Shown here: positions 10,248 through 38,406 of the stretch, in pieces | Position numbering within the stretch: position 1 is the first letter of the stretch | How the letters are laid out: the number at the start of each line of letters is the position of its first letter | Assembly: GCF_048403405.1 (NCBI RefSeq) | Contig: NZ_CP183129.1 | Reading direction: 5' to 3' (one strand) | DNA: 64,000 bases | Source: Escherichia coli | Lineage (GTDB): Bacteria > Pseudomonadota > Gammaproteobacteria > Enterobacterales > Enterobacteriaceae | Program-made: the position numbers and the translations under genes | Notes under the pieces: model-generated | Database searches by the model: none | Told to the model about the DNA's origin: nothing | What the model saw: the letters and a program-made list of their open reading frames with translations, nothing else

Positions 10248-10508
10248 ATACAACTCCTCTGTGAATCGGTTTAGTCAGAAGAAGCAAAAAGACACTTTAC
10301 CGAAGGGTTTAACATTTTTTCGTGATACTCATCACCATGACGCAAATGCGTTGCATAAATTTACCCACCAAAAGTGATGCAAATCACATAAATCACTCTT
10401 CATTCTGCAGGACTGCATAAAAGATGAGCCGATTCAGGCAATGTGATTTGTTGCATGCTGACTATAGTTAACATTGCGCAACATTTTTATAAGGGTACGG
10501 AGAATACC

Positions 10509-11318
10509 ATGGCAACAACACAACAATCTGGATTTGCACCTGCTGCATCGCCTCTAGCTTCGACCATCGTTCAGACCCTGGACGACGCGATTGTGGCGGG
10601 CTTCACCTCTATCCCTTCACAAGGGGATAACATGCCTGCTTACCATGCCAGACCAAAGCAAAGCGATGGCCCACTGCCAGTGGTCATTGTAGTGCAGGAA
10701 ATTTTTGGCGTGCATGAACATATTCGCGACATTTGTCGCCGTCTGGCGCTGGAGGGGTATCTGGCTATCGCACCTGAACTTTACTTCCGCGAAGGCGATC
10801 CGAATGATTTTGCCGATATCCCCACGTTGCTTAGCGGTCTGGTAGCAAAAGTGCCTGACTCGCAGGTGCTGGCCGATCTCGATCATGTCGCCAGTTGGGC
10901 TTCCCGCAACGGCGGCGATGTTCATCGTTTAATGATCACCGGATTCTGCTGGGGTGGACGTATCACCTGGCTGTATGCCGCGCATAATCCACAGCTAAAA
11001 GCCGCAGTGGCGTGGTACGGCAAACTGACGGGCGATAAGTCGCTGAATTCACCGAAACAACCTGTTGATATCGCAACCGATCTTAACGCGCCGGTTCTCG
11101 GCTTATATGGCGGCCAGGATAACAGCATTTCGCAAGAGAGCGTGGAAACGATGCGCCAGGCGCTGCGGGCAGCAAACGCGAAAGCAGAAATTATCGTGTA
11201 CCCGGATGCAGGGCATGCGTTCAACGCCGATTATCGTCCGAGCTATCATGCCGAGTCTGCGAAAGACGGCTGGCAGCGAATGTTGGAATGGTTTACACAG
11301 TATGGTGTTAAAAAGTAA
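10509..11318 (+). CDS. ysgA: Dienelactone hydrolase family protein (YsgA-like)
   Basis: ORF open from 10443; start placed at MATTQQSGFAPAAS, which is preceded by a GGAGA SD. Alpha/beta-hydrolase features (GFCWGG nucleophile elbow). Confidence 0.85.
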   Translation: MATTQQSGFAPAASPLASTIVQTLDDAIVAGFTSIPSQGDNMPAYHARPKQSDGPLPVVIVVQEIFGVHEHIRDICRRLALEGYLAIAPELYFREGDPNDFADIPTLLSGLVAKVPDSQVLADLDHVASWASRNGGDVHRLMITGFCWGGRITWLYAAHNPQLKAAVAWYGKLTGDKSLNSPKQPVDIATDLNAPVLGLYGGQDNSISQESVETMRQALRAANAKAEIIVYPDAGHAFNADYRPSYHAESAKDGWQRMLEWFTQYGVKK

Positions 11319-11574
11319 CGCCATAGTCGCTAAATCTGATGATTAAGCTCACACAATTTCAACGATTTTTTTAATCTCAAAACCATACAGCATCAAAAAA
11401 TTTGTTGCTGTATGCCACTCTTTGACTCCCTTCACATTCGTCATCACACCACCTGCTGAATGCAAAAATTTCGTTGCTGTGCGGCAAACTTTTTTCCTGT
11501 TTTGTGCCGCTTTTCTCCTGAATACTCGTTCTCAGAACAACTGGATCGTTTAAACATCAGACAGGAGATTTACC

Positions 11575-12243
11575 ATGACGCAATCCATTTTTCAGGCTCA
11601 ACCCTTTGAATTACCTTTTGATCCGCGCACAACTGCACTGGTCATGATCGACATGCAGCGTGACTTTGTCGAAGCAGGGGGCTTCGGTGAGGCACTGGGC
11701 AATGATGTTTCACTGGTACGCACGGCTATCGCACCATGTACAGAGGTGCTGGCAGCCGCACGTCAAAAAGGAATTATGGTTATTCATACTCGTGAAGGCC
11801 ATCGTGCAGACTTAAGCGACTGCCCGCCAGCCAAACTGACGCGCGGCGGAAAAACCTTTATTGGTGAACCAGGACCGATGGGACGCATTCTGGTCAGAGG
11901 TGAAGCAGGTCATGACATCATTCCTGAACTGTACCCGGTGGCAGGCGAACCGGTGATTGATAAGCCTGGCAAAGGCGCGTTTTATCAAACCGACTTACAT
12001 CTGATTTTGCAAAACCACGGTATCAAGACGCTGATAGTTTGTGGTGTAACAACCGAAGTTTGCGTAACCACCACCGTGCGCGAAGCAAATGATCGTGGCT
12101 ATGAATGCATTATCCCGGAAGATTGTGTCGGCTCCTATTTCCCGGAATTCCAGAAATACGCCCTCGAGATGATCAAAGCACAAGGTGCCATTTTCGGTTG
12201 GGTTACTGATTCCAAAGCCATTATTGCAGGTCTGGAAGGCTAA
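11575..12243 (+). CDS. Isochorismatase-family cysteine hydrolase (RutB / N-carbamoylsarcosine amidase / biuret hydrolase-like amidase)
   Basis: 222-aa ORF with the isochorismatase-fold signature: Asp in VMIDMQRDF near the N-terminus and catalytic Cys in CGVTTEVCV. AGGAGA SD upstream. First gene of accessory operon A. Confidence 0.8.
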   Translation: MTQSIFQAQPFELPFDPRTTALVMIDMQRDFVEAGGFGEALGNDVSLVRTAIAPCTEVLAAARQKGIMVIHTREGHRADLSDCPPAKLTRGGKTFIGEPGPMGRILVRGEAGHDIIPELYPVAGEPVIDKPGKGAFYQTDLHLILQNHGIKTLIVCGVTTEVCVTTTVREANDRGYECIIPEDCVGSYFPEFQKYALEMIKAQGAIFGWVTDSKAIIAGLEG

Positions 12244-12248
12244 CGCCG

Positions 12249-13109
12249 ATGGCACAGATTACGCTTTGCGCATCGTCGTTGGGATATCTTTTCCCGCAGA
12301 ATGAAACGCAAGATTTACGTCTGCATAGCGCTTTTAAACATGCGGTAAATCTGTATTCAGAAGCGGGAACATTCATCACTCTGTTGTGTGCGCAAACGTA
12401 TCTGAATCTCCCTGATGCTGCCAGAGTCTGGCTACCTGAATGTTGGGACTGGCGAAGAGAGATTGCCCATTCCGATCCCGTTCAGTTAACCCCAGGCTTA
12501 CTGCAGACACCTCGCTTTTGTGTGGCTCTCGATAACGCAACGCTCTGGCAGCCGTCATTTGTGGGAGGAAGGCTGACACTTGAGGCGTTCCCTTTGGTTT
12601 TCCAGCACTACCCAACGATGGCATCGCAACGGCTTTTATTTTGTCTGGAGCATAACGTTCAAAGCACATTGCACCTGCCGGATAGTCTCACGCACCAGGG
12701 ATTAGCGATTATGGAACATCCAGATGCGCTGGAACGCCAGGTGCCACAACTGATCGGCTTTGGTAAAGGCTTAACGCCCGATGGAGATGACTATTTGTTG
12801 GGCTATCTGGCAGCACTCTGGTTATGGCAACTCCCTGCACCACTTGCCGATCATCAATACCGGTTGCAGCAGGCAATTGATCAACATGCGCACAACACCA
12901 CGGATATCAGTCGTCATTATCTGGAGCGTGCGCTTCAGGGACATTTTTCAGAACCGATTTGCCAGTTACTCGCACAACTGGTTGGGAGCGCATCGGCAAT
13001 GACAATCGCATCCTGTGCAGAACAGGTCATGCAATTTGGCGCAACGTCAGGAGTAGATTGCCTTGCAGGAATGCTGCATGGCTTTCGAACCCTGAACACC
13101 ATGAATTGA
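12249..13109 (+). CDS. DUF2877-family protein (YlbF/YahE/AllH-like subunit of an oxamate-carbamoyltransferase-type complex)
   Basis: 286-aa ORF starting 6 nt after the previous stop; Gly-rich motifs GKGLTPDGDDYLLGY and GATSGVD resemble the DUF2877 family as I recall it. Position matches the yahE-yahF-yahG-yahI order. Confidence 0.65.
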   Translation: MAQITLCASSLGYLFPQNETQDLRLHSAFKHAVNLYSEAGTFITLLCAQTYLNLPDAARVWLPECWDWRREIAHSDPVQLTPGLLQTPRFCVALDNATLWQPSFVGGRLTLEAFPLVFQHYPTMASQRLLFCLEHNVQSTLHLPDSLTHQGLAIMEHPDALERQVPQLIGFGKGLTPDGDDYLLGYLAALWLWQLPAPLADHQYRLQQAIDQHAHNTTDISRHYLERALQGHFSEPICQLLAQLVGSASAMTIASCAEQVMQFGATSGVDCLAGMLHGFRTLNTMN

Positions 13110-13203
13110 TTTCAACCTTTTCTCCTGTAGCTCATTTATGGCGCTACACGGGGATGCTTTGCCCGAATTTTACTATCGGGCGGAATGAAACAGGCGTAAC
13201 AGC

Positions 13204-14763
13204 ATGAAAGTTAAATATAAAGTTTTCAGTAATCTTTATCAGGACTCAGTTTCTCTGATGCAGATTTCCGCGCAAATCAGCAAGTTGCCCGGTATTCAAC
13301 AGGCCTCGGTCGTCATGGGAACACCCAATAATCTCGAACAATTGCGCGATGCGGGTCTGGGTAACGAAATCAACGCCAGTCCCAATGATTTAGTGATTGC
13401 AGTCATGGGTGAAGAAGATATTTGCAATGAAGCACTGGCACTGGCCCAGCAACGTCTGACCAGCAAACCCGATGATGAAACGGATAGTGGCATTAAAACA
13501 CCGGAAAATGTCAGCCTGGACATGGCACTGGAAGCCGAACCCGAAGCCAACCTGGCACTCATTTCTGTACCGGGAGACTACGCCGCCGCCGAAGCAATTA
13601 AAGCGTTAAACCTCGGAATGAACGTGATGATGTTCAGCGATAACGTCAGTATCGCGCAGGAAAAATCCATCAAAATACTTGCCCGAGAACGTCAGCGCAT
13701 CGTAATGGGACCTGACTGTGGAACCGCCATTGTTAACGGCATTCCGTTAGGCTTCGCTAATGTGGTGAAACGCGGAGCAATTGGTGTTATTGGCGCGTCA
13801 GGCACCGGGCTACAGGAAGTGACTTGCCGAATCGACCAGCTCGGAGCGGGTATTTCTCAGGCGCTGGGAACAGGCGGGCATGATCTCAGTGAAGAGATTG
13901 GTGGAATATCGATGCTCTTCGCTTTAGATGCGCTGGCGCAAGACGATGAAACTCGCGTAATTGTGCTGATTTCAAAACCGCCTTCACCGATCGTTGCCCG
14001 GACTATTCTGGAGCGTGCCGAGGCTTGTGGAAAACCCGTGGTGGTGAATTTCCTCGGTGCGAATCCGCATGATCTGGCACGTCCCAATATCACTGCCGCC
14101 ACCACACTTGCCAGCGCCGCCGACATCGCTGTGGCGTTACTGAATGCTCAGCCACTTCCGGCTGTCGAGACCGAGATTTCCTGCGCCGATCTCACAATGT
14201 TACAAAACGCCTGTCAGCGCCTGCCAGCCCATCGCCAGGCGATACGCGGTGTTTTCGCCGGAGGAACCTTCTGCTACGAAGCGCAACTTATCTGCCAGCA
14301 AAAGGGATTCCGCGCCGCCTCCAATACGCCAGTTGCGAGTAATCGTACTCTGGCAAATATCTGGCAAAGCGAAGATCACACGCTGATCGATATGGGCGAC
14401 GATGATTTCACCCGTGGCAAACCGCATCCAATGATCGACCCGACTCTGCGCAATCAACGTCTGCTCAACGAACTCAACGACTCACACACTGCCGTCGTGT
14501 TATTCGACCTGGTACTTGGTTATGGCGCTTCCGCTACACCTGCCAGCGAATTACTGGACCAACTTTCACACATCGACATGAATAACGCACCGTTGCTGAT
14601 TGCGCACGTTTGCGGAACGGAAGCTGATCCGCAAATACGCAGTCAGCAGATAAGCGCACTACAAAATGCGGGCATCATCATTGCCAGCAGCAATGCACAG
14701 GCGGCGCTATGGGCCAGCGTCGTTGCGCAGACTCAGTTGCAGAAAAAGGGGCTAAACGCATGA
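13204..14763 (+). CDS. FdrA-like protein (CoA-binding / succinyl-CoA-synthetase-like fold; AllF/YahF family)
   Basis: 519-aa ORF sharing long motifs with E. coli FdrA as I recall it (NLALISVPGDYAA, MMFSDNVS, MGPDCGTAIVNGIPLGFANVV, GVIGASGTGLQEV, GRPHPMIDPTLRNQ). Confidence 0.8.
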   Translation: MKVKYKVFSNLYQDSVSLMQISAQISKLPGIQQASVVMGTPNNLEQLRDAGLGNEINASPNDLVIAVMGEEDICNEALALAQQRLTSKPDDETDSGIKTPENVSLDMALEAEPEANLALISVPGDYAAAEAIKALNLGMNVMMFSDNVSIAQEKSIKILARERQRIVMGPDCGTAIVNGIPLGFANVVKRGAIGVIGASGTGLQEVTCRIDQLGAGISQALGTGGHDLSEEIGGISMLFALDALAQDDETRVIVLISKPPSPIVARTILERAEACGKPVVVNFLGANPHDLARPNITAATTLASAADIAVALLNAQPLPAVETEISCADLTMLQNACQRLPAHRQAIRGVFAGGTFCYEAQLICQQKGFRAASNTPVASNRTLANIWQSEDHTLIDMGDDDFTRGKPHPMIDPTLRNQRLLNELNDSHTAVVLFDLVLGYGASATPASELLDQLSHIDMNNAPLLIAHVCGTEADPQIRSQQISALQNAGIIIASSNAQAALWASVVAQTQLQKKGLNA

Positions 14764-16184
14764 ATACCTTATTTAATCAGCCTTTGAAGGTTGTGAACGC
14801 GGGACTACACAGTTTTGCTGACAATATTCAACATGCCGGGGGAAGCGCAATTGCACTCAACTGGCAGCCACCAGCACAAGGCGATATTGACGCTGGATTG
14901 GATCTGGCATCGTTGCTACGTCATCCACTGGTAGAAAATGCCAACCAAATCGCCATGACACGTTATCTCGAAGCACAGCCCGTGCTGGTAGATGTCATGC
15001 TCGCTAAAGAGGCCATTCCAGCAATGGCTGAACAAAAACGTATTTTGCACTCTGGCCCGCCGATTGCCTGGGAAGAGATGTGTGGTCCGGTAAAAGGGGC
15101 GATTATTGGTGCCATGCTGTACGAAGGTTGGGCCACCAGCCAGCAAGACGCTGAAAACCAGATAAACGCAGGCGAAATCGACCTTGCCCCTTGTCATCAT
15201 TATCACGCGGTTGGCCCAATGGCTGGCATCATCAGCCCGTCGATGCCGTTATGGGTGGTAGAAAACAAAACCAACGGCCACCGTACTTTTAGCAATTTCA
15301 ATGAAGGTCTGGGTAAGGTTCTCCGTTTTGGCGCCAATAACGATGAAGTTCTCAATCGTCTGGCCTGGATGCGCGATGAACTGGCGCCGGCAATGAAAGC
15401 AGCAATCGCACAACACGGCGAGCTGGAACTCAAGCCATTAATGGCGCAGGCGCTGCATATGGGGGATGAAGTTCATAACCGCAATGCTGCCGCTACCGGT
15501 TTGCTGATTAAGCGCCTGCTCCCGGCATTGCTGGCCTGCTCTCTTCCACAGGAACATATCCAGCGCGTCGTGGCATTTATCACCGGTAACGATCACTTCT
15601 TCCTCAATCTGTCGATGGCTGCCTGTAAAGCAATGATGGATGCCGCCGCCAATGTACCGTTCAGTTCAATGGTTACGGTGATGGCGCGTAACGGGGTGAA
15701 TTTTGGTATTCGGCTTTCCGGTACTGGCGATCGCTGGTTCCAGGCTCCTGCCAATGCCGTTGAAGGTCTGTTCTTCCCCGGATTTGGCGTTGACGACGCT
15801 GCTGCTGACCTGGGTGATAGCGCAATTACTGAAACCGCAGGTGTGGGTGGCTTCGCGATGGCGTCGTCTCCGGCGATCGTCAAATTTGTGGGAGGCACCC
15901 CTGCCGATGCCACCAATAACAGCCGTCGGATGCAAGCCATCACCCTCGGCGGTAACCCCGCATTTACACTTCCAGCCCTCAATTTTGCCCCCACCGCAGC
16001 AGGGATTGATGCGCGTAAAGTGACCGATCGCGGCATTTTACCGGTCATCAATACGGGTATCGCCCACAAACAAGCGGGGGTCGGGCAAATTGGTGCCGGG
16101 ATCACCACTGCGCCGATGGCCTGTTTTGTCGCCGCTGTACGTGCACTGGCGGAGATCGTCGCAAAGGAGAACCATCATGGTTAA
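14760..16184 (+). CDS. DUF1116-family protein (YlbE/YahG/AllG-like)
   Basis: ORF open from 14709; I place the start at the ATG at 14760, which overlaps the FdrA-like stop (ATGA), giving MNTLFNQPLKVVNAG. Same gene order as yahF-yahG and fdrA-ylbE. Confidence 0.75.
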   Translation: MNTLFNQPLKVVNAGLHSFADNIQHAGGSAIALNWQPPAQGDIDAGLDLASLLRHPLVENANQIAMTRYLEAQPVLVDVMLAKEAIPAMAEQKRILHSGPPIAWEEMCGPVKGAIIGAMLYEGWATSQQDAENQINAGEIDLAPCHHYHAVGPMAGIISPSMPLWVVENKTNGHRTFSNFNEGLGKVLRFGANNDEVLNRLAWMRDELAPAMKAAIAQHGELELKPLMAQALHMGDEVHNRNAAATGLLIKRLLPALLACSLPQEHIQRVVAFITGNDHFFLNLSMAACKAMMDAAANVPFSSMVTVMARNGVNFGIRLSGTGDRWFQAPANAVEGLFFPGFGVDDAAADLGDSAITETAGVGGFAMASSPAIVKFVGGTPADATNNSRRMQAITLGGNPAFTLPALNFAPTAAGIDARKVTDRGILPVINTGIAHKQAGVGQIGAGITTAPMACFVAAVRALAEIVAKENHHG

Positions 16185-17133
16185 GCCACTGGCTGTTGTC
16201 GCGGTTGGCGGCAATGCGCTCATTCAGGACGAGCAACGCAATAGTATTCCCGATCAATATGTTGCAGTGATGGAAAGCGTGCAGCATATCGTTGATATGG
16301 TTGAAGCCGGATGGGACCTGGTGCTAACCCACGGTAATGGCCCGCAGGTGGGCTTTATTCTGCGCCGCTCTGAACTCGCCAGTAACGAAGTTTCTCCGGT
16401 TCCACTTGATTACGCCGTGGGTGATACACAAGGTGCAATTGGCTACATGTTCCAGAAAGCGCTGCATTACGAATTGGCTCGCCGTGGCATAAACAAACCG
16501 GTAATTGCCCTGGTGACACAAACGCGAGTCAGCCCACATGACGATGCTTTCGCCAACCCCAGTAAACCGATTGGCGCGTTTCTCGATGAAGCAACGGCCC
16601 AACAACGCCAACAACAACTCGGCTGGACGCTGATGGAGGACGCCGGGCGTGGTTGGCGGCGTACAGTTCCCTCTCCTGCACCACTGGAAATTATTGAGCA
16701 CGACACCATCGCTCACCTGGTGCGCCAGGGATATCTGGTTATTGCCTGCGGCGGCGGCGGTATTCCGGTGGTGCGAGACGGGCAACAACTGAAAGGTGTA
16801 GAAGCCGTGATCGATAAAGATCTGGCCTCCGCGCTGCTCGCCAGTCAGTTAGGCGCAGATCTGCTGGTGATCCCCACCGGTGTAGAAAAAGTGGCGATTA
16901 ACTTTGGTACACCACAACAACAGTGGCTCGACGCTATCAGCGTTGCCGAAGCGCAAACGCTGTTGCGGGAAGGTCAGTTTGGTGTCGGCAGTATGCAACC
17001 CAAAGTGGAAGCCATTGTTGATTTCATCAATGCCAGCCAGCAACAAGGCAAACAGGCCAGCGGCCTGATTACTTCACCGCAAACCATAAAAGCAGCCCTG
17101 GCGCATCAGAGCGGTACATGGATAACCCTTTAA
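16177..17133 (+). CDS. Carbamate kinase (ArcC/YahI/AllK family)
   Basis: ORF open from 16090; start placed at MVKPLAVVAVGGNALI (the classic carbamate kinase N-terminus) with an AAGGAGA SD 7 nt upstream; 8-bp overlap with the preceding gene. Confidence 0.85.
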   Translation: MVKPLAVVAVGGNALIQDEQRNSIPDQYVAVMESVQHIVDMVEAGWDLVLTHGNGPQVGFILRRSELASNEVSPVPLDYAVGDTQGAIGYMFQKALHYELARRGINKPVIALVTQTRVSPHDDAFANPSKPIGAFLDEATAQQRQQQLGWTLMEDAGRGWRRTVPSPAPLEIIEHDTIAHLVRQGYLVIACGGGGIPVVRDGQQLKGVEAVIDKDLASALLASQLGADLLVIPTGVEKVAINFGTPQQQWLDAISVAEAQTLLREGQFGVGSMQPKVEAIVDFINASQQQGKQASGLITSPQTIKAALAHQSGTWITL

Positions 17134-17149
17134 ATCTCTGGAGAACACA

Positions 17150-17539
17150 ATGACTACAACGCTTTTAGCCGTTAACGGAACGCTGATGCGCGGCCTGGAA
17201 CTCAACCCAAATATGAAAAAAGCGGGCGGTATTTTTGTCCGTGAAGACCGAACTGACGCCCATTACCGGTTGTGGAGTATTAACGATCGCCATCCGGGAA
17301 TGATTCGCGTGAATGAAGGAGGAACACACGTCGACGTAGAAATTTGGCAATTACCGCTGGCCAGTTTTGCCGCTCTGTTAATGAGCGAACCCGCTGGGCT
17401 GGCAATTGGCAAAATCAAACTTGCCGATGGTAGCGAAGTGCTGGGCGTACTGGCAGAAAACTGGCTGACCGAAGGCCAACGGGAAATTACAGAACTGGGC
17501 GGCTGGCGCAAATACACCGGGCATTTTCATACTGTGTAA
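17150..17539 (+). CDS. Small protein resembling the C-terminal domain of allophanate hydrolase (GGCT-like fold), tentative
   Basis: 129-aa ORF. The segment YRLWSINDRHPGMIRVNEGGTHVDVEIWQLPLASFAALLMSEPAGLAIGKIKLADGSEVLGVLAENW...LGGWRKY resembles the allophanate hydrolase C-terminal domain pattern as I remember it. Assignment from memory only. Confidence 0.5.
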   Translation: MTTTLLAVNGTLMRGLELNPNMKKAGGIFVREDRTDAHYRLWSINDRHPGMIRVNEGGTHVDVEIWQLPLASFAALLMSEPAGLAIGKIKLADGSEVLGVLAENWLTEGQREITELGGWRKYTGHFHTV

Positions 17540-17564
17540 CGCGCATTTATAAAGGGAACATACT

Positions 17565-18788
17565 ATGCGTAAAAAAGAAGAGAATCTGAATACGGCATCA
17601 GGATTGCGTATTGCCATGATTTTGCTGGGTATTGCCGTCACACCTGTGCTGTTGTCATCCTCAAGCCTCGGCAATCAACTTTCCAGCGGCAGTTTAATTA
17701 GCGTCGTATTGTTAGGCGGCGTCATTCTGACCTTACTTTCAGCCATCACCATTAGCGTGGGAGAAAAAGCCCGCCTGCCAACGTATGGCATTGTGAAATA
17801 TTCGTTTGGCGAAAAAGGGGCCATCGCCATTAACATTTTGATGGCGATAAGTCTGTTCGGCTGGATTGCCGTTACCGCCAATATGTTTGGTCATTCGGTA
17901 CATGACTTACTGGCTCAACATGGACTGGAAGTTCCACTGGCACTGTTAGTGGCGGCTGGCTGTGTCATTTTTGTCGCCTCTACGGCATTTGGCTTTGCCG
18001 TTCTGGGAAAAATTGCCCAGGTTGCCGTGCCGGTTATCGCGCTGGTGCTGTGTTACATCCTCTATGTGGCAACCCATACCGAAGTGGCAGTACCAGCGGC
18101 GATTGTGGAGATGAATACAGGTGTCGCCGTTTCCACCGTTGTTGGCACCATTATTGTGCTGGTTGCCACACTGCCTGATTTCGGTAGTTTTGTGCATAAC
18201 CGCAAACATGCACTGATTGCCGCAGGCGTGACGTTTCTGGTTGCCTACCCTCTGCTCTACTGGGCGGGTGCAACGCCGAGCGCCATTAGTGGTCAGGGAT
18301 CTTTACTGGGTGCGATGGCGGTATTCGGTGCGGTTCTGCCTGCGGCGCTGTTGTTGATTTTCGCCTGCGTCACCGGTAACGCGGGCAATATGTTCCAGGG
18401 CACGCTGGTGGTTTCCACACTGCTTACCCGCTTTCCCAAATGGCAGATTACCGTGGCGCTGGGTATCCTTTCCGCCATCGTAGGCAGTATGGATATTATG
18501 GCGTGGTTTATTCCGTTTCTGCTGTTCCTGGGTATCGCCACGCCACCCGTTGCCGGAATTTATATCGCTGACTTTTTCCTTTATCGCCGTAATGGCTATC
18601 AAGAGTCAGTGTTAGCCCAGGAGTCACAGATTAAAGTGCTGACATTCGCAGCATGGATCATAGGCGCAGCGGTTGGCTTTATGACCGTAAAAGGCTTATT
18701 CACCCTGACGACGATCCCTTCGGTAGACTCGATTCTGGTGGCATGTATCGCGTATGCGATTCTCAGTCGGGCAAGTCAACACCGCTAA
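17565..18788 (+). CDS. NCS1-family nucleobase/hydantoin-type permease (CodB-like)
   Basis: 407-aa polytopic membrane protein (about 12 hydrophobic segments) with length and organisation like the cytosine permease CodB. Confidence 0.75.
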   Translation: MRKKEENLNTASGLRIAMILLGIAVTPVLLSSSSLGNQLSSGSLISVVLLGGVILTLLSAITISVGEKARLPTYGIVKYSFGEKGAIAINILMAISLFGWIAVTANMFGHSVHDLLAQHGLEVPLALLVAAGCVIFVASTAFGFAVLGKIAQVAVPVIALVLCYILYVATHTEVAVPAAIVEMNTGVAVSTVVGTIIVLVATLPDFGSFVHNRKHALIAAGVTFLVAYPLLYWAGATPSAISGQGSLLGAMAVFGAVLPAALLLIFACVTGNAGNMFQGTLVVSTLLTRFPKWQITVALGILSAIVGSMDIMAWFIPFLLFLGIATPPVAGIYIADFFLYRRNGYQESVLAQESQIKVLTFAAWIIGAAVGFMTVKGLFTLTTIPSVDSILVACIAYAILSRASQHR

Positions 18789-18865
18789 TTCCTGGGTATA
18801 CTCAGGCAATGATTACGGCTGAATCTGGAGAGATTCAGCCACTTTACCACTGACCAGGGAGCCTT

Positions 18866-19771
18866 ATGTTCATCTCAGACGAAACGCTTCGTGTTATTCA
18901 TCTGGTCGCCAGACACCAGAGCATTACCATCGCAGCCGAGCAGTTAAATAAAGTCCCTTCCGCCATCAGTTACACCATCAAGAAAGCGGAAGAGAGCCTG
19001 GGCGTTGAACTGTTCATTCGTAAGGGACGCTATATTGAATTATCGCCAGCGGGAAGTTACTTCATCGAACATAGCAAAACTATTCTTGGCGACCTGGAAG
19101 CATTAAAGCGCAACACAGTGCTGATTCACGATGGTATTGAGCGTGAACTGACAATTGCGGTAAACAATATTATTCCTGGTAATTTGCTGGTGGCATTTAT
19201 TCGAGATTTTGAACGGCAATTCACATCAACAACACTGACGGTAGATCTTGAGGTATACAACGGCTGCTGGGATGCGCTGTACAGTAAGCGTGCTGATCTG
19301 GTCTACGGTGCTCCTCATGCAGTACCAAGTAGTGAAGGCATCATTAGCGAACCGGTCGGACAAATGGAATGGGATTTTGTCGTCAGCCCACTCCACCCAC
19401 TGGCAGCGAAGCGGCATCCATTAGAAAACAGTGAATTGCGTCATTATCCAGCGGTTTGTATCCGCGATACCTCCGTTAACTTCCCCCCGATGCAAGCCTG
19501 GTTGTTGGAAGGACAAAAACCCATTTTTGTTCCTGACTTCGCTACGGCAATCGCCTTAATAGAACAAAACGTCGGTATTGGTTATATTCCACATCATCTG
19601 GCATTGCCGTTATTGAACAGCGGTAAATTGCTTAAAAAGCCAATGCGCGAACATAAACACGCCACCAAGTTATTTCTTGCCGCTCGTTCCGATGGTATGG
19701 GCAAAGCCTGTCAGTGGTGCATAGAATATTTAAGAAACCCGCAATTAATGACACGATTTGTATTTAATTGA
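18866..19771 (+). CDS. LysR-family transcriptional regulator
   Basis: 301-aa ORF with N-terminal HTH (ITIAAEQLNKVPSAISYTIKKAEESLGVELFIRKGR) and C-terminal LysR substrate-binding domain. Confidence 0.85.
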   Translation: MFISDETLRVIHLVARHQSITIAAEQLNKVPSAISYTIKKAEESLGVELFIRKGRYIELSPAGSYFIEHSKTILGDLEALKRNTVLIHDGIERELTIAVNNIIPGNLLVAFIRDFERQFTSTTLTVDLEVYNGCWDALYSKRADLVYGAPHAVPSSEGIISEPVGQMEWDFVVSPLHPLAAKRHPLENSELRHYPAVCIRDTSVNFPPMQAWLLEGQKPIFVPDFATAIALIEQNVGIGYIPHHLALPLLNSGKLLKKPMREHKHATKLFLAARSDGMGKACQWCIEYLRNPQLMTRFVFN

Positions 19772-19899
19772 CAATACAATGATAAAAATATAAGTCTTGC
19801 TTTAATTAGAGCGCCCGTTTAAATTATTTTTGTGCAGTTGACGTAACTCATGAAAATTAACCGGTCTGTTAATCATTACGTTCACTGCACACCTTCATT

Positions 19900-19940
19900 T
19901 TTTCACACCTATCCACGCCTGAAAACTATGTTATAATCAG
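19900..19940 (+). promoter_or_regulatory. Putative sigma70 promoter with extended -10 (TGTTATAAT) for the RpiR-family gene
   Basis: TGTTATAAT at about 19929-19937 in an AT-rich intergenic region, about 30 nt upstream of the ATG at 19971. No convincing -35. Confidence 0.3.
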
Positions 19941-19970
19941 CACTTTCTGTCAGAATGAAATTTACTAATT

Positions 19971-20816
19971 ATGAATAACATAACCGTAAAAAGTCTGATT
20001 CAAAGCAATTACCCTACACTGCATCAGGCGGAAAAAAAGGTCGCCGACTATATTCTTAGCCACGCACATGAAGTCGTGAACTATAGTGTCACTGAACTAT
20101 CAGAAAAAAGCCATGCCAGTGAAGCGACTATCGTGCGCACCTGTAAGAAATTAGGTTATCAGGGTTATTACCATTTAAAAATTGCATTAGCAAAAGAAGT
20201 CATTAATCCTGACAATAGCTATCCTGATAATACCGATTTTACCGATATAACGTCGCTGGCCACATTTTTATTAAAAAAACAGGCCGAAGATTTAATACAA
20301 TCAACGCAATTTTTTAATGCCGAAGTGCTTGAGTCCATTCTCAAACTACTTGCTAATTGCGATACTATTTTCTTTTTTGCTGCCGGAAATTCAAACCCTC
20401 TGGCCGTTTATGGTGCTTATAAATTCAGCCAACTCGGATTAAAAACCGTTGTTCACGTCAGCCCGGAAATGCAAATTAATGCGGCATATTCTATGGGGAA
20501 ACGCGACCTGGCGATTGGTATTTCTAACTCTGGCAGCACCAACTTAATGGTCGATATCTTTAAAGTGGTGAAAGAGCGCGGTGCCAAATCCGTTTGTATC
20601 ACTAACTATATTAAATCTCCGTTATCAAAACTCTCCACCCATCAACTCAATACCGCGGTCAGCGATAAAATCTTCTTTGAAGCCTTCGACTCCACTCGCG
20701 TTCCGGCAATGGGCGTTATTGATATGCTGGTGCTGTTGTTTATGTATAAAAACAAGGCGCATTACGAGAAATACCGCACCCGTGAAGAGTTTCTCGGCTC
20801 CCGTTTCAAGGGGTAA
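19971..20816 (+). CDS. RpiR/MurR-family transcriptional regulator (HTH + SIS domain)
   Basis: 281-aa ORF with N-terminal HTH_6-type region (SVTELSEKSHASEATIVRTCKKLGYQGYYHLK) and C-terminal SIS domain. Confidence 0.85.
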   Translation: MNNITVKSLIQSNYPTLHQAEKKVADYILSHAHEVVNYSVTELSEKSHASEATIVRTCKKLGYQGYYHLKIALAKEVINPDNSYPDNTDFTDITSLATFLLKKQAEDLIQSTQFFNAEVLESILKLLANCDTIFFFAAGNSNPLAVYGAYKFSQLGLKTVVHVSPEMQINAAYSMGKRDLAIGISNSGSTNLMVDIFKVVKERGAKSVCITNYIKSPLSKLSTHQLNTAVSDKIFFEAFDSTRVPAMGVIDMLVLLFMYKNKAHYEKYRTREEFLGSRFKG

Positions 20817-20840
20817 AAGGTCATCCTTTCACCCCTTGTG
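20810..20840. terminator. Hairpin between the convergent RpiR-family and transketolase genes (possible bidirectional terminator)
   Basis: GGGGTAAAAGG-TCAT-CCTTTCACCCC inverted repeat overlapping the rpiR-like stop codon, followed by TTGTG; 30-bp gap between convergent stops. Confidence 0.4.
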
Positions 20841-20845
20841 CAGGT

Positions 20846-22843
20846 TTAGCTATTCAGTAGCTCACGCGCCTGCGCCAGGACATTTTCCGGCGTAAAACCA
20901 AAGTGTTTGAACAACACATTCGCCGGAGCAGACTCACCAAAGCTCGTCATCCCAATGACTTTACCATCCAGACCGACGTAGCGTTCCCAGAATCCGGCGA
21001 TGCTGGCTTCTACCGCCAGACGTTTGCGTACAGCTTTTGGCAATACCGATTCTTTGTACGCCGCATCCTGATTATCGAAACGCTCGGTACACGGCATGGA
21101 AACTACGCGAACTTTACGCCCTTCTTCCGTTAACGCTTTTGCGGCGCTGACCACTAACTCAATCTCTGAACCCGCAGAAATGAGGATCATCTCAGGCTGA
21201 CCGTCACAATCACTCAGTACATAACCACCACGCGCAATCTCTGCCAACTGTGCAGCGGTGCGCGGCTGTTGCGCCAGCGGTTGGCGCGTTAATACCAACG
21301 ACGTTGGGCCATCTTTGCGCTCAATCGCCTGTTGCCAGGCCACCGCCACTTCCACCTGATCGCAACCGCGCCAGGTTTCCATATTCGGCGTCAGACGCAG
21401 CGACGCCAGTTGCTCAACGGGCTGATGTGTCGGGCCGTCTTCGCCCAGGCCGATGGTATCGTGGGTATAAACAAACACCGAGCGGATCTTCATCAGCGCC
21501 GCCATGCGCAGTGCATTACGCGCATATTCCATAAACATCAGGAAAGTACCGCCGTAAGGGATAAACCCACCATGCAGCGCAAGACCGTTCATGATGGCCG
21601 ACATACCAAATTCACGCACGCCATAGGAGATGTAATTCCCCGCCGGATTTTCCCCGGTGAAATCAACCGATTTCTGATGGCGAGTCAGGTTAGAGGGCGA
21701 CAAGTCCGCCGAGCCGCCCATCAGTTCCGGCAGCATATCAGCGAAGTGATTGAGGCATTTCTGGCTGACCTGACGGGTTGCCAGCGCCGCCGGATGGGAT
21801 TGCAGATCGTGCACATATTTCTGCATATTCTCGGCCCAGCCAGCAGGCAAATCACCCTTCATGCGACGAGTAAACTCCGCCGCCAGTTCCGGCCACTGCT
21901 TCGCGTAGTCAGCAAACAGTGCATCCCATTCCTGTTGAACCTGCGCGCCTTTCTCGGTCGCATCCCATTCGGCATAAATTTCACCAGGAATTTCGAAAGG
22001 GGCATACGGCCATTGCAGACGTTCACGCACCAGCGCCACTTCATCTGCACCCAGCGCCGAGCCGTGGCAATCGTGGCTGTTGGCTTTATTTGGTGAACCA
22101 AAACCGATAATCGTTTTGCAGCACAGCAGACTGGGCTTATCCGTGACGCTTTTCGCTTCACGCACCGCAGCATCTACCGCTTCTGGATCGTGACCATCAA
22201 CGCCTTCAATGACATGCCAGCCGTAGGCACGAAAACGGGCAGCCGTATCTTCAGCGAACCAGCCTTCTACGTGACCATCGATCGAAATACCGTTATCGTC
22301 CCAGATAGCAATCAGATTGCCGAGCTTCAGCGTTCCTGCAAGACCACAGGCCTCGTGGGAGATCCCTTCCATCAGGCAGCCATCACCCAAAAATAGCCAT
22401 GTGTGATGATCAACAATATTAAAGCCCGGTTTGTTAAATTCTGCCGCCAGCGCCTTCTCCGCAATCGCCATCCCCACCGCATTAGCTACGCCCTGCCCCA
22501 ACGGGCCGGTGGTGGTTTCAACACCCGGCGTATAACCATATTCTGGATGACCCGGCGTGCGGGAGTGGAGCTGACGAAAGTCGCGAATATCATCCATCGA
22601 CAGGTCGTAGCCTGTAAGATGCAGCAAAGCGTAAATCAACATGGAGCCGTGACCGTTCGACTGAACATAGCGGTCGCGGTTAAACCACTGCGGATTTTTT
22701 GGGTTATGACGCAGGTGACGACGCCAGACCACTTCGGCAATATCCGCCATCCCCATCGGCGCGCCCGGATGACCGGAGTTCGCTTTCTGGATCGCATCAA
22801 CACTTAACATTCGGATGGCATTAGCCAGTAATTGTGAATTCAT
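20846..22843 (-). CDS. tkt: Transketolase paralog (third tkt copy; possibly the ExPEC-associated 'tkt1')
   Basis: 665-aa ORF collinear with E. coli TktA/TktB over its whole length ([81 protein letters not shown]) but clearly divergent from both, and located in an accessory island. Confidence 0.9.
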
Positions 22844-22893
22844 ACTTCAGCTCTCTCTGTCTGGCGGGCTGAAACCAGCCCGCTAATCTCGAA

Positions 22894-24402
22894 TTAGTTA
22901 GCACAGGCCACTGTCATTTCTGTCGGGCGCGGTCTGCTCATTACGGTTTTAATTTCGTCGCGCAGGATTTGCGATTTGCCGCCAAATATCACCTGTACAC
23001 CGCCATCACCCAGTTTCACTAACCCCGCAGCCCCCAACTCCTTCAGCCGTTTTTCATTCACTTTCTTATCGTCTACCAGCGCCAGCCTCAGGCGTGTTGC
23101 GCAGGCATCCACATCTTCGATATTGTCGAAACCACCTACTGCTTCGATGATTTGGTATGGACGTTCTTCGCGCGTTAATGTGGTTGCAACGGCAATCTCT
23201 TCATCCTCACGTCCCGGTGTTTTCAGATTCAACTTGCGGATCAGTACCCGAAATACGGTGTAGTAAATCGCTGCATAGCCCGCGCCTGCCAGGAACACCA
23301 GATACCACGGCGTGCGGTTTGGCATAACGCCATTCAGTACGAAATCAATAAGACCGCCAGCAAAAGGATGACCAATGTGCACATTCAGGATGTTCATCAG
23401 CACAAATGAAGTGGCATATAAGAAGATGTGAATGATGTAGAGAACCGGAGCTGCAAACAAAAATGCATATTCCAGCGGCTCCGTAATCCCGGTAACAAAT
23501 GTGGTCAGCGCACCGGAGAGTAAAAGGCCTTTAATCAGCGCCTTACGTTCCGGTTTTGCTTCCTGATACATCGCCAACGCGGCGGCAGGTAACGCAAACA
23601 TCATGATCGGGAAACGACCTGTCATAAACAGCCCCGCCGTCAACGGAACACCGTCGCGCAATTGGGCAAAGAACACCGGAATATCGCCCGTCACCAGTTG
23701 CCCGGATTTGGTCATGTAGTCGCCAAAGTTGTAATAAAACGGCACGTTCCAGATATGATGCAGGCCAAAAGGAATCAGCGAACGTTCGCCAACGGCGTAA
23801 ATAAAGGCCGCGAAGTTCGCGTTATGCCCACTGGTCACCAGCGTTGAAAGCGACGCCAGACCTTTTTGTACCGGTATCCACAGCCACGGCAATAAATAGC
23901 CGACAATAATTGCCGCCACCGCCGTAATAATCGGTACAAAGCGTTTTCCACCGAAGAAACCAAGAAACTGAGGCAATTCAATATTGTGGAAGCGGGTATA
24001 GAGCAGATAAACAAAGATGGCGACAATCAAACCGCCAAACACTCCCGTTTGTAACGTCGGTACCCCGAGGATCATCGCATAGTCACCGTTACTGGCTGCA
24101 ACGGACTCCGCGGTAATGCCAAGTTGCGTTCCCATCGTGGCATTCATGATCATGTAACTGATAATCGCTGAAAGTGATGAAGAACCATCACCTGTCAGGC
24201 CAATCACAATACCGACACAAAACAGCAAAGGAAGGTTGGCGAAAATCAGGCCGCCGCAATTCGCCAGCAGCTCAATGTTAAATGAAATCCCGATGGCTAA
24301 AATCAAACCCGCCGCCGGAAGAATGGCGATTGGTAACATCAGAGCAGAAGAAAATTTCTGCAACTTCTTGAAGTTAAACAAGGATGTTATTTTTTTGCTC
24401 AT
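22894..24402 (-). CDS. PTS glucose-family EIICB component (EIIC domain followed by EIIB domain)
   Basis: 502-aa ORF: polytopic EIIC region, then a C-terminal EIIB domain with the phosphocysteine motif DACATRLRL. No EIIA domain. Confidence 0.85.
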   Translation of the reverse strand: MSKKITSLFNFKKLQKFSSALMLPIAILPAAGLILAIGISFNIELLANCGGLIFANLPLLFCVGIVIGLTGDGSSSLSAIISYMIMNATMGTQLGITAESVAASNGDYAMILGVPTLQTGVFGGLIVAIFVYLLYTRFHNIELPQFLGFFGGKRFVPIITAVAAIIVGYLLPWLWIPVQKGLASLSTLVTSGHNANFAAFIYAVGERSLIPFGLHHIWNVPFYYNFGDYMTKSGQLVTGDIPVFFAQLRDGVPLTAGLFMTGRFPIMMFALPAAALAMYQEAKPERKALIKGLLLSGALTTFVTGITEPLEYAFLFAAPVLYIIHIFLYATSFVLMNILNVHIGHPFAGGLIDFVLNGVMPNRTPWYLVFLAGAGYAAIYYTVFRVLIRKLNLKTPGREDEEIAVATTLTREERPYQIIEAVGGFDNIEDVDACATRLRLALVDDKKVNEKRLKELGAAGLVKLGDGGVQVIFGGKSQILRDEIKTVMSRPRPTEMTVACAN

Positions 24403-24443
24403 TTTTATTCTCCTGTAGGGTATCGAGCAAATAACGGCGACGA

Positions 24444-25001
24444 CTATTCCAGATTGGCGTGGCGCTTAAACAGTTCACTTTCCGGCGCACCACTTTCAGC
24501 AGCCATCTTCATCACTAATGCATCGGCAATCACCAGCAAAGCTTGCTCATACAACGACGCCATCGGCTGTGCCGAGCGGAAAACAGAATCTTTTTGATTT
24601 TTGGAAGGGGCATTGATTTGCACGATGACGTCGACAAACTCGGTGATAGTGGCGTGTCGATTCGTGGTTAACACCGCCACAGCGCCGCCAAGCTGACGTG
24701 CTTTTTTCGCCAGTGCCACCAGTTGTGCTGTCTCACCGGAAGCGGAAGAAACGATAAACAGATCGCCAGGCCCAAAGTTCGGCGTAATGGTTTCCGTCAG
24801 AAAGTAAACCTCTTTTCCCATATGCATCAGGCGCATGGTGAAGGCTTTCATGGAAAAGCCGGCGCGTCCCAGGCCATAGCAGAAAACGCGCTGGCTTTGC
24901 TGAATAGCGTCGATCAATTTGGTGCAGTCATCCTCACGGATAGAGTCCTTAACGAAGGTTAATTCATTGATGATCTCAGTGATGTACAGCTTTGCGTCCA
25001 T
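24444..25001 (-). CDS. SIS-domain sugar-phosphate isomerase resembling 6-phospho-3-hexuloisomerase (PHI/HxlB-like)
   Basis: ORF open to 25013; start placed at the second Met (MDAKLYITEII), which has a GAGGTG SD about 6 nt upstream. About 185 aa with FTMRLMHMG, SASGET and C-terminal HANLE, as in PHI/HxlB as I recall it. Confidence 0.7.
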   Translation of the reverse strand: MDAKLYITEIINELTFVKDSIREDDCTKLIDAIQQSQRVFCYGLGRAGFSMKAFTMRLMHMGKEVYFLTETITPNFGPGDLFIVSSASGETAQLVALAKKARQLGGAVAVLTTNRHATITEFVDVIVQINAPSKNQKDSVFRSAQPMASLYEQALLVIADALVMKMAAESGAPESELFKRHANLE

Positions 25002-25307
25002 TTCACACCTCATGAAATAATTTTCTCAAACACAAAATCTCATGAAATTTTATTTCATTCCAATGCATCAGTATGAAATGTGAAGCTAGTCACAAGAAAG
25101 ATCATAGGTTGATATGTTTTTCATTAAAAAACATATAGATATCAAGTAATTTTTAATATGTGATGGAGAGGCAGATAGAAAAAATGGCGGAAATGACGAA
25201 ATTTATTTCATGAGAAGGGAATAAAGAAGATTTTCTTAAACAGGGTATGAACTGATATCTGGAATGGTTTACGCAGTATGCTGGGAAGACGTCGCTGTAA
25301 TGAGAAA

Positions 25308-37557: not shown

Positions 37558-38406
37558 ATGAACAACATATTAGGCTCATCAATTAATATGCCCTGTACAC
37601 TTTTCGAAACTATTACTTTATTCGATGATTTTTCTGCTGATGATATGCAATATGGGGATATGGAAGAACAAGATTTTCTCTCACTCGGCTTAAGCGACAT
37701 CTCTGCAAAAGTTGATCCTTACCGCCTCATTAAATACCATTTTCCTGGGCCGAATTCTACTTATGGTGCTTTTAGTGTTCCAACTTCTGGAACAAAAATA
37801 TCACAAAGTGAATGTATTGATATTTTATTTGCAGAAATGAAAGATCTGGCAAAAATGTTTTCCTTTTTTGGACAATACAAAACACTCATCCAGGATCTGA
37901 TTGATCATTTTAGATATGGAAATGGCAACAGTTTCCATAGCCAGGAATTGAACTTATCTTTTCATGAACGAATAAAAAAATATGATTATAATAGCCCAAT
38001 ACGTGTAATCAAAGAATGTATCGAAAATGATATTTCTTCAACACCTACGATAGGATACCGGCCTCTTCTCCTACAAAAGATTAAGATCGAATTACTTTCA
38101 TCAAGACTAAATAAATTCAATGATTTTAAAGATAATTTTAATGGCCTGGGAATCAGCATTCATGATATCTCAGCTCAAAAAATATCTCTTTTAAGTTTTC
38201 AAAAATACGCTATAGGATGGAGTGCAACAATTCATTTTGTAGCACAGGACCACTTCGGTCTTGATGTAACTGATATCAAAAACAAGACTTACAGCAAATA
38301 TAGATTTTTTCGCATATGGTTCTTTTTACAACGGCATAAAGACTTTGCTTTCAAACCTTTTTTCACCAATTTTAACACTATCGAAAGAATCGAAAATTAT
38401 CTATGA
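37558..38406 (+). CDS. Hypothetical cytoplasmic protein, 282 aa, in a low-GC two-gene module (possibly DUF3289-like; unverified)
   Basis: Clean ORF with AAGGAGA SD (37545-37551), acidic N-terminus, no signal peptide. Strongly AT-rich codon usage unlike the flanking rarD/corA. Confidence 0.6.
   Translation: MNNILGSSINMPCTLFETITLFDDFSADDMQYGDMEEQDFLSLGLSDISAKVDPYRLIKYHFPGPNSTYGAFSVPTSGTKISQSECIDILFAEMKDLAKMFSFFGQYKTLIQDLIDHFRYGNGNSFHSQELNLSFHERIKKYDYNSPIRVIKECIENDISSTPTIGYRPLLLQKIKIELLSSRLNKFNDFKDNFNGLGISIHDISAQKISLLSFQKYAIGWSATIHFVAQDHFGLDVTDIKNKTYSKYRFFRIWFFLQRHKDFAFKPFFTNFNTIERIENYL

Follow-up and report, generated by a model that had tools for sequence, protein, structure and literature searches.

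The window, i.e., the entire 64-kb stretch of DNA analyzed here, is a segment of the Escherichia coli chromosome. Homology to island-free E. coli ends at ~11307 and resumes at ~25256; the intervening sequence is the tkt1 genomic island published for B2/ExPEC strains (metE/ysgA; PMC3349570; GR 29 in PMC12928451). The relevant features are as follows.

11308–25255, no strand: tkt1 genomic island, ~13.9 kb here, between ysgA and metE
11575–19771: nitrogen module of the island
19971–25013: sugar module of the island
19971–20816, plus strand: MurR/RpiR-family regulator (HTH_6 and SIS domains; Pfam/NCBIfam), convergent with tkt1
20846–22843, minus strand: tkt1, full-length transketolase, last gene of the operon (TIGR00232)
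22894–24402, minus strand: EIICB permease gene, 502 aa (ORF; Pfam EIIC and EIIB)
22981–23238, minus strand: EIIB domain of the permease, residues 389–474 (NCBIfam TIGR00826, EIIB_glc)
23419–24348, minus strand: EIIC membrane domain of the permease, residues 19–328 (PF02378, PTS_EIIC, E 8e-72)
24444–25001, minus strand: hxlB-like single-SIS sugar-phosphate isomerase of the HxlB/YckF type, first gene of the operon, 185 aa (TIGR03127)
25042–25058, no strand: candidate RpiR operator, a perfect inverted repeat (7-3-7, ATGAAAT-AAA-ATTTCAT) located between the start codon and the CRP site
25079–25094, no strand: perfect CRP consensus palindrome TGTGAAGCTAGTCACA, inside the island, centered ~85 nt upstream of the hxlB start codon

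The insertion site is identical to that of the tkt1 island described in APEC O1 and B2 ExPEC (Li et al. 2012, PMC3349570), and the APEC O1 island and the present one share a sugar isomerase, PTS IIBC, tkt1, two regulators, a permease and a carbamate-kinase-like gene. The 16-kb APEC O1 island also contains three small hypothetical ORFs beside metE that are missing in this strain. A literature search with the locus tags or with the combination of HxlB, PTS, transketolase and RpiB identifies no functional study beyond PMC3349570 and a comparative paper from 2026. The permease gene is accessory, being present in ~21–29% of complete E. coli genomes. A search of PLSDB detects no plasmid copy of the segment 19900–25100, so that the 127 plasmid places found in the genome search must stem from the part of that query that covers the LysR gene.

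The operon consists of the genes for the hxlB-like SIS isomerase, EIICB and Tkt1, in this order, with the rpiR regulator gene convergent to it. The product of the first gene (start codon at 25001 in the PGAP annotation, at 25013 in the longest ORF) scores 205 against the cutoff of 160 for TIGR03127, and its best match among solved structures is YckF from Bacillus subtilis (E 3e-39). Although the HxlB model is passed, a ribulose-monophosphate (HxlA/HxlB) formaldehyde module was rejected because an HxlA/HPS gene is annotated neither in the window nor in the related cassettes L005, L007 and L011. Tkt1 (TIGR00232 score 1009, cutoff 682) is 69% identical to TktA and retains all 14 of the 14 catalytic and phosphate-binding residues. 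A gene for an RpiR-family regulator accompanies EIICB in loci L004, L005, L007, L011, L013 and L015 as well, and the E. coli protein is a probable sugar-phosphate-responsive repressor of the operon.

Domain architecture and relatives of the permease

The permease gene (ptsG in the RefSeq annotation, APECO1_2642 in APEC O1) is located on the minus strand, a detail left out of the original prediction, and is preceded by an AGGAG ribosome-binding site. That the protein combines EIIC and EIIB and ends in an EIIB domain marked by the sequence DACATRLRL, as originally predicted, agrees with the Pfam and NCBIfam assignments. In addition to the TIGR00826 match, PF00367 (PTS_EIIB) covers residues 417–449 (E 6e-15); the DACATRLRL motif occupies residues 432–440 and includes the phosphorylatable Cys434 (codon 23101–23103). 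The sugar-site motifs of EIIC, GITE (305–308) and His-His (215–216), both align to PtsG. The island gene encodes a real sugar-uptake permease of the EIIC+EIIB type.

The absence of EIIA, HPr and EI from the island, likewise part of the original prediction, is borne out and extends to the whole window. In the PGAP annotation of a genome identical to and collinear with this one, the entire 64 kb encodes no other PTS component (EIIA, HPr or EI), and a six-frame tblastn search of the window with Crr, HPr and four EIIA tails taken from relatives as queries yields noise only, except for the EIIB tail itself. A Pfam search with the 502-aa permease (E<=0.01), the check by which an EIIA domain at the termini of the protein should become apparent, detects PTS_EIIC and PTS_EIIB and nothing else, in particular no PF00358 (EIIA). 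There is no space for an EIIA domain of ~130 aa because only 18 residues precede EIIC and residues 450–502 comprise the remainder of the EIIB fold and a short tail. An EIIA pseudogene remnant is similarly incompatible with the 50 nt that separate the permease stop codon from the tkt1 start.

In these respects, the protein resembles E. coli PtsG (IICB-Glc, 477 aa), with which it is collinear from end to end and 46% identical over the full length. The two proteins have in common the IIC-linker-IIB architecture and length class, the KTPGRED linker, the CxTRLR loop and the lack of an EIIA in cis, the EIIA of PtsG being encoded elsewhere (ptsHI-crr).

The closest non-enterobacterial relatives of the permease (57–68% identity) possess an EIIA-Glc-class partner, either fused (PF00358) or encoded by a crr-like gene in the same cluster. 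The fused EIICBA forms (P0011–16, P0018–20) are 57–64% identical to the permease, whereas in L007 a stand-alone EIIA gene is located two genes downstream of it; the stand-alone crr-like EIIA of a subclade relative scores 132 against the cutoff of 97.5 for TIGR00830. These EIIA partners are 35–44% identical to Crr and retain both catalytic histidines. The clusters L008 (Rhodococcus koreensis), L026 and L027 encode HPr and EI in addition to EIIA. The permease copies without EIIA are the E. coli one and those of the enterobacterial-type cassettes L011, L015 and L004, of Sebaldella (L005) and of L013, which is more divergent, and no EIIA partner is found near the enterobacterial and Sebaldella copies. 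This survey of EIIA by taxon comprises 12 loci, mostly from a search for contigs encoding relatives; a scan of genome contigs with a single-protein query gave 11 loci, among which only L015 and L016 are close relatives.

The clusters with fused or separate EIIA (L008 from R. koreensis; L006, L007, L026 and L027 from metagenomes) share the binding-site signature of the permease with the E. coli island copy, and L007 and L008, like the E. coli cassette, encode an HxlB-type SIS protein and a transketolase. Unlike in E. coli, these clusters have an EIIA of their own and, in the actinobacterial versions, HPr and EI as well. In L007, L008 and L015, the SIS and Tkt genes are accompanied by genes for a Gfo/Idh/MocA dehydrogenase, an AP_endonuc_2 enzyme, an alpha/beta hydrolase and a glycerate kinase, all four of which are absent from E. 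coli; the fuller clusters of the subclade also carry RpiB, which is missing from the E. coli cassette. The E. coli cassette is a reduced version of this larger, conserved cluster.

Substrate of the permease

The permease exceeds the cutoff of the NCBIfam glucose-specific equivalog TIGR02002 (608.6 versus 591.8) and retains 9 of the 11 glucose ligands of PtsG (E202, R203, H211, H212, N215, G295, T297, E298 and F337). It could therefore be a second glucose permease, i.e., a PtsG paralog transporting D-glucose, with neighbor genes that merely tune the flux through the pentose-phosphate pathway. Several lines of evidence make this reading unlikely. The score against NF008301, the E. coli PtsG equivalog, is 443, below the cutoff of 647, such that the island permease resembles the Gram-positive-type TIGR02002 family more than the enterobacterial PtsG equivalog. 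Its subclade has a binding-site signature of its own (N219/Y223/TGRFPIMMF/A348) that is distinct from that of Firmicute PtsG. Among the glucose-contacting residues of PtsG, K257, which binds OH-2 and OH-3, and S338 are replaced by Met and Ala, respectively; Q219 is replaced by Tyr. Furthermore, the subclade is consistently linked to an isomerase and C-C-cleaving enzymes, for which glucose-6-P has no need, and the island permease gene is transcribed together with those for an HxlB-type isomerase and a transketolase and has an RpiR regulator as its partner, whereas PtsG is under the control of Mlc and SgrS. The sugar is probably glucose-like but probably not plain glucose. Candidates that were weighed, none of which was adopted, include 3-hexulose or 3-keto sugars, heptoses (from S7P via Tkt to RpiB), 1,5-anhydro sugars, N-substituted glucosamines (Heyns compounds) and glucosylglycerate.

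Promoter region and conservation of the cassette

The region upstream of the hxlB-like gene contains two candidate regulatory elements. The perfect TGTGA-N6-TCACA palindrome at 25079–25094 is the sole match without mismatches in the 64 kb, with 0.09 expected; the 88%-identical orthologous cassette L011 has TGTGAGCAACAGCACA at the matching relative position, with one mismatch. The inverted repeat at 25042–25058 has related copies near 25193–25213 and 25008–25024, and L011 retains ATGAAAT-AAT-ATTTCAT at the equivalent position, although the AT-rich leader is otherwise diverged. Probably, cAMP-CRP activates the operon at the consensus site, and the convergent RpiR-family regulator probably represses it at the conserved palindrome.

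The operon would be linked to catabolite repression by two routes. First, its transcription would depend on CRP. Second, the activity of the permease would draw on the P~Crr pool, so that transport would lower P~Crr and hence cAMP synthesis, and would favor inducer exclusion. The proposed link between the island and host catabolite repression is independently supported by the perfect CRP palindrome and its one-mismatch counterpart in L011. It applies to the three-gene sugar operon but not to the island as a whole, half of which is the unrelated nitrogen module.

Lacking the accessory genes that accompany the permease in L007, L008 and L015, the E. coli cassette might be a decaying or cryptic remnant, a partial cluster received without EIIA, in which the permease has no physiological role. 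The reported properties of Tkt1 are in line with such decay: the protein failed to complement tktA, and phenotype arrays revealed no carbon-source defect in a tkt1 mutant (PMC3349570). Nevertheless, this reading appears quite improbable. The hxlB-like, EIICB and tkt1 ORFs are all intact and at least 99% conserved in more than 1000 genomes, with the permease gene intact and at least 99% identical in 1387 records, and Tkt1 has lost none of its catalytic residues. The permease evolves under strong purifying selection: comparison with the Serratia homolog gives a dN/dS of 0.06, the sole pair that yields a ratio given that dS is saturated in most pairs, and the other pairs show low dN only (e.g., dN of 0.085 with saturated dS for L011). 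Moreover, the promoter motifs are conserved, and the same minimal SIS-Tkt-EIICB-RpiR set occurs independently in Sebaldella (L005) and L011.

Probable phosphate supply from the host phosphorelay

The phosphate for the permease is almost certainly supplied by host Crr, as in the case of the E. coli glucose permease. The EIIB domain aligns to the PtsG IIB structures (1IBA, 1O2F and 3BP3) and is 50% identical to PtsG EIIB, and Cys434, Arg437 and Arg439 of the active-site loop correspond to Cys421, Arg424 and Arg426 of PtsG. Two points weigh against Crr: the affinity for it could differ because Ala435 takes the position of PtsG Ile422 in this loop, and the cognate EIIAs of the relatives share no more than 35–44% identity with Crr. 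The crr gene itself is core, being found in 5425 of the 5426 complete E. coli genomes. The original prediction stated that a chromosomal EIIA must be borrowed, probably Crr. The lack of an EIIA in cis, the EIIA-Glc class of the relatives' partners and the core status of crr all speak for Crr, but "must" overstates the case, since NagE and BglF of E. coli have EIIA domains that can stand in for Crr.

The main donor might then be another host domain of the EIIA-Glc family, namely, the EIIA at the C-terminus of NagE or BglF or a paralog specific to the strain. EIIAs and EIIBs show promiscuous cross-talk within the glucose family (PMC6148471), and a second related sequence does exist, given that a crr DNA query in distant mode hits a median of two places per E. 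coli genome. The Ala435 substitution points in the same direction. However, NagE and BglF are inducible or cryptic, and the stand-alone EIIA of L007 is crr-like. Crr, in turn, is the EIIA-Glc that is abundant and soluble, and it has been documented as the donor for EIIA-less IICB/IIBC permeases of E. coli, including TreB, which depends on EIIA-Glc (PMC3938415). A main donor other than Crr is, therefore, very unlikely. Direct phosphorylation of EIIB by HPr, or a non-phosphorylating facilitator, neither of which would need an EIIA, is hardly credible: slow facilitated diffusion by some EIIC domains has been discussed for TreB (PMC3938415) but is not specific to this permease, whereas selection preserves the catalytic Cys and the Arg residues beside it, the relatives retain a dedicated EIIA, and in B. 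subtilis, where six EIIA-less permeases are fed by glucose-family EIIAs and not directly by HPr, direct transfer is excluded by the inability of a strain without any EIIA to use the sugars of these permeases (PMC6148471).

With Crr as the presumed donor, we infer from sequence that phosphate would pass from PEP via EI, HPr and host EIIA-Glc (Crr) to Cys434 of EIIB and on to the sugar bound in EIIC, and that the HxlB-type isomerase and the transketolase Tkt1 from the same operon would process the resulting sugar phosphate. The overall explanation, a working IICB permease of the glucose family that was acquired with the tkt1 island, is fed by Crr and belongs to a putatively CRP-activated, RpiR-repressed operon, is very likely to be correct.

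A Crr-borrowing IICB is the norm among the glucose-family permeases of E. coli, a textbook arrangement and not a peculiarity (PMC3938415, PMC6148471). E. coli TreB and the B. subtilis permeases NagP, MalP, TreP, SacP, SacX and MurP are all EIIA-less IICB/IIBC proteins that use a glucose-class EIIA in trans (PMC3938415, PMC6148471); their substrates are known, whereas a glucose-like substrate and Crr as the in vivo donor are predictions for the island permease. As stated, the finding of an EIIA-less permease matters little, considering that both the island and its gene for a "glucose-specific IIBC" were already in print in 2012. The relatives, however, make it a tidy example of an imported transporter that plugs into the host phosphorelay: elsewhere in the subclade the permease comes with an EIIA of its own, and in actinobacteria with HPr and EI as well, whereas copies whose hosts have a resident Crr lack one in the surrounding DNA. 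The perfect CRP site and the conserved palindromic operator add a concrete regulatory prediction of modest value.

A broader proposal, tentative and somewhat short of an even chance, is that the permease and its subclade import a sugar other than glucose, such that the cassette would be a minimal, previously undescribed PTS route, run by Crr and switched by cAMP-CRP, for a sugar derived from the host or its diet in B2 ExPEC. Fuller versions of this route may add the Gfo/Idh/MocA dehydrogenase, the AP_endonuc_2 enzyme, the alpha/beta hydrolase, the glycerate kinase and RpiB. The operon has been implicated in fitness, and the identity of its sugar would bear on how B2 strains feed outside the gut.

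Domain architecture of the permease and its predicted EIIA partner

In a Pfam search, the EIICB protein (502 aa, window 22894-24402, minus strand) contains the PTS_EIIC domain (residues 19-328, E 8e-72) and the PTS_EIIB domain (residues 417-449, E 6e-15), and no further domain reaches E<=0.01; the NCBIfam EIIB_glc model covers residues 389-474, and the DACATRLRL motif occupies residues 432-440. The protein matches the E. coli IICB-Glc structures 8QSR and 9HNP end to end (E 1e-114), and the alignment takes in both the active-site loop and the KTPGRED linker between the domains. Identity to PtsG is 46% over the whole protein and 50% in the EIIB domain as mapped from the alignment, and Cys421, Arg424 and Arg426 of PtsG correspond to Cys434, Arg437 and Arg439. 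All the sequence-level features that define a glucose-family IICB are present; judged from these, EIICB belongs by mechanism and family with the Crr-dependent permeases of the glucose family, as do PtsG and TreB of E. coli.

The original prediction that the island encodes no EIIA, HPr or EI is borne out over the entire 64 kb: the PGAP annotation of a collinear genome lists no other PTS proteins, and a six-frame tblastn search of the window with E. coli Crr, HPr and the EIIA-containing C termini of four relatives returns nothing above noise except the final ~20-45 residues of the EIIB domain. An EIIA domain at the termini of EIICB, which would speak against this prediction, was sought by profile search and none was found; either terminus is too short for an EIIA of ~130 residues, and the stop codon is 50 nt from the next gene.

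Beyond E. coli, the nearest homologues of EIICB make up a subclade of their own. Identity to EIICB is 84-90% for the enterobacterial-type copies, 70% for the Sebaldella copy, 68% for a metagenomic copy and 57-64% for several EIICBA proteins (673-690 aa) with a fused PF00358 domain.

EIIA and other PTS genes at loci carrying relatives of the permease
L008, Rhodococcus koreensis: EIIA fused (EIICBA), then HPr and EI
L026, metagenome: EIIA fused (EIICBA), then HPr and EI
L027, metagenome: EIIA fused (EIICBA), then HPr; the contig ends inside the next gene
L006, metagenome: EIIA fused (EIICBA); no other PTS genes
L007, metagenome: stand-alone crr-like EIIA two genes downstream; no other PTS genes
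E. coli, L011, L015 and L004, enterobacterial-type: no EIIA within 8-10 kb; no other PTS genes
L005, Sebaldella: no EIIA or other PTS genes in the 8 kb upstream and 1.3 kb downstream covered
L013, metagenome, 59% identity: no EIIA or other PTS genes in the 8.2-kb contig

The stand-alone EIIA of L007 scores 132 against TIGR00830 (cutoff 97.5), and the cognate EIIAs of the relatives share 35-44% identity with Crr of E. coli and keep both catalytic histidines. Since the fused and stand-alone partners are Crr-like in this respect, EIIA-Glc is the predicted natural partner class of the permease. The crr gene occurs in all but one of the complete E. coli genomes (5425 of 5426). In E. coli, however, Crr can be replaced by the EIIA domains of NagE and BglF. 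Thus, of the proposal that the permease must borrow a chromosomal EIIA, probably Crr, the partner class indicated by the relatives and the core status of crr are upheld, and Crr is the likely, though not the obligatory, donor for the island permease. There is a precedent in Bacillus subtilis, where glucose-family EIIAs serve six EIIA-less permeases, which lose function when all EIIAs are deleted, a result that excludes direct transfer from HPr in that organism (PMC6148471).

The tkt1 island and control of the sugar operon

The gene order in the window is that of the E. coli chromosome (ubiD, tat, ubiB, udp, ysgA, island, metE, metR, recQ, uvrD, cyaA, hem, asl, wec); the queried region is 100% identical in several complete genomes, and the annotated one is collinear across the whole window. 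The island, of which the EIICB gene is part, lies between ysgA and metE; similarity to island-free strains ends at ~11307 and restarts at ~25256. The island is the one described as the "tkt1 genomic island" in APEC and B2 ExPEC (Li et al. 2012, PMC3349570), and its PTS, HxlB-like and RpiR genes are still filed as uncharacterized in a 2026 comparative paper (PMC12928451). EIICB is a functionally uncharacterized glucose-family member in an island already published in 2012, and the specific point of the original prediction is correct yet ordinary. Among 5426 complete E. coli genomes, 1133 have at least 80% of the region 18800-25300 and 1558 have part of it. The island consists of two unrelated halves, a nitrogen module and a sugar module:

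11575-19771: nitrogen module (cysteine hydrolase, AllH-like, FdrA, YlbE, carbamate kinase, allophanate-hydrolase-related protein, cytosine permease, LysR)
19971-20816, plus strand: rpiR, convergent with the minus-strand sugar operon
20846-22843, minus strand: tkt1, sugar operon
22894-24402, minus strand: EIICB gene, sugar operon
24444-25001, minus strand: hxlB-like SIS gene, sugar operon

The genes of the sugar operon are separated by 41 and 50 nt. A one-mismatch CRP-like site (11421-11436) lies ~140 nt upstream of the first gene of the nitrogen module.

The exact junction of this window is common to only 672 genomes. In a comparison of window 25101-25256 with other E. coli, some island-bearing strains lose similarity at ~25101, immediately upstream of the CRP site; additional DNA separates their operon promoter from metE, as it does in the 16-kb APEC O1 version with its three small hypothetical ORFs. 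The query 18800-25300 matched 127 places on E. coli plasmids; PLSDB contains no plasmid copy of 19900-25100, so the LysR-family gene (18800-19900), located at the junction of the two modules, must be their source. Small genes with family-level annotation only stand between core genes at 37558-38894 and 41103-42005, encoding a YPO3983-family protein and a DUF943 protein between rarD and corA, and a SAM hydrolase/halogenase-family protein between yigE and uvrD.

The only perfect match to TGTGA-N6-TCACA in the 64 kb (0.09 expected by chance) is found within the island at 25079-25094, ~85 nt before the start codon of hxlB. The DNA separating the two contains a perfect 7-3-7 palindrome, ATGAAAT-AAA-ATTTCAT (25042-25058), a candidate RpiR-family operator; related copies occur at about 25193-25213 and 25008-25024. 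The leader of L011, an enterobacterial-type locus, is otherwise diverged and AT-rich, and keeps TGTGAGCAACAGCACA followed by ATGAAAT-AAT-ATTTCAT (palindrome region 1193-1212) at the same relative positions, a motif pair that amounts to a phylogenetic footprint for the putative CRP site and, by inference, for an RpiR operator. The same scan detects a one-mismatch site, AGTGATGCAAATCACA, at 10373-10388 in the divergent udp/ysgA region; given that udp has a classical CRP/CytR promoter, this site serves as an informal positive control. The three-gene sugar operon is thus probably under direct cAMP-CRP control. Extending the proposed link with catabolite repression from this operon to the whole island is unwarranted as regards the nitrogen module.

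Use of Crr would add coupling at the level of activity, through competition for P~Crr, reduced cAMP synthesis and inducer exclusion while the sugar is transported. Adenylate cyclase (CyaA) is stimulated by phospho-EIIA-Glc; its gene, cyaA (48499-51045, minus strand), also falls in the window, ~24 kb away from the island, a proximity that is probably a coincidence involving a core-genome neighbour.

Conservation of the cassette and the substrate of the permease

The permease is at least 99% identical in 1387 records; comparison with the L011 orthologue (88% identical) gives dN 0.085 with saturated dS, and dN/dS against Serratia is 0.06. The four-gene cassette of SIS, EIICB, Tkt and convergent RpiR recurs in L011 and in a further locus, L012, in a different chromosomal context, and the Sebaldella cassette is a version with a split transketolase. 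In chickens, a signature-tagged tkt1 mutant is out-competed. Tkt1 shares 69% identity with TktA, and 14 of 14 checked catalytic, ThDP-binding and phosphate-binding residues are conserved, which is hard to reconcile with the very little transketolase activity concluded from failed complementation of a tktA mutant (PMC3349570). Locus L015, from a record titled Chryseobacterium sp. 18061, carries the cassette with 79-90% amino-acid identity to E. coli, together with Gfo, AP_endonuc_2 and hydrolase genes, and has a 562-aa ORF where Serratia ficaria has an SgrR-like regulator; its label may be due to contamination or to a recent transfer.

The possibility that the substrate is glucose is favored by TIGR02002, the NCBIfam Gram-positive-type glucose equivalog, which EIICB passes (608.6, cutoff 591.8), and by the PtsG glucose ligands defined by cryo-EM (PMC11393339), of which E202, R203, H211, H212, N215, G295, T297, E298 and F337 are identical in EIICB. 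However, EIICB fails the E. coli PtsG equivalog (443 vs 647) and differs from PtsG by K257 to Met (K257 contacts OH-2/OH-3), S338 to Ala and Q219 to Tyr; the subclade signature N219/Y223/TGRFPIMMF/A348, compared with Y/W/TGKFPFMMF/S in Firmicute PtsG, also argues against plain glucose. Furthermore, an isomerase and a C-C-cleaving enzyme are always linked to the subclade, and glucose-6-phosphate would need neither.

These neighbours come as an HxlB-type SIS protein with transketolase (RpiB is added in L007), as a Gfo/Idh/MocA dehydrogenase, AP_endonuc_2 and alpha/beta hydrolase with a glycerate kinase belonging to one of two non-homologous types, or as a class II aldolase with a lyxose-isomerase-type cupin. 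The first two sets are combined in L007, L008 and L015, and E. coli and Sebaldella have the SIS/Tkt set alone. Genes of the second set recur near subclade members in L004, L006, L007, L008, L015 and L026, the glycerate kinase being Gly_kinase in L006 and L007 and MOFRL in L004; this cluster was matched to no described pathway. The SIS protein is a genuine homologue of HxlB/YckF; a formaldehyde-fixing RuMP module is rejected because no HxlA accompanies it. A tentative reading, to which we give somewhat less than an even chance, is that ExPEC use a sugar other than glucose through an undescribed PTS-dependent pathway, of which the cassette is the minimal form; if true, this would be of moderate interest.
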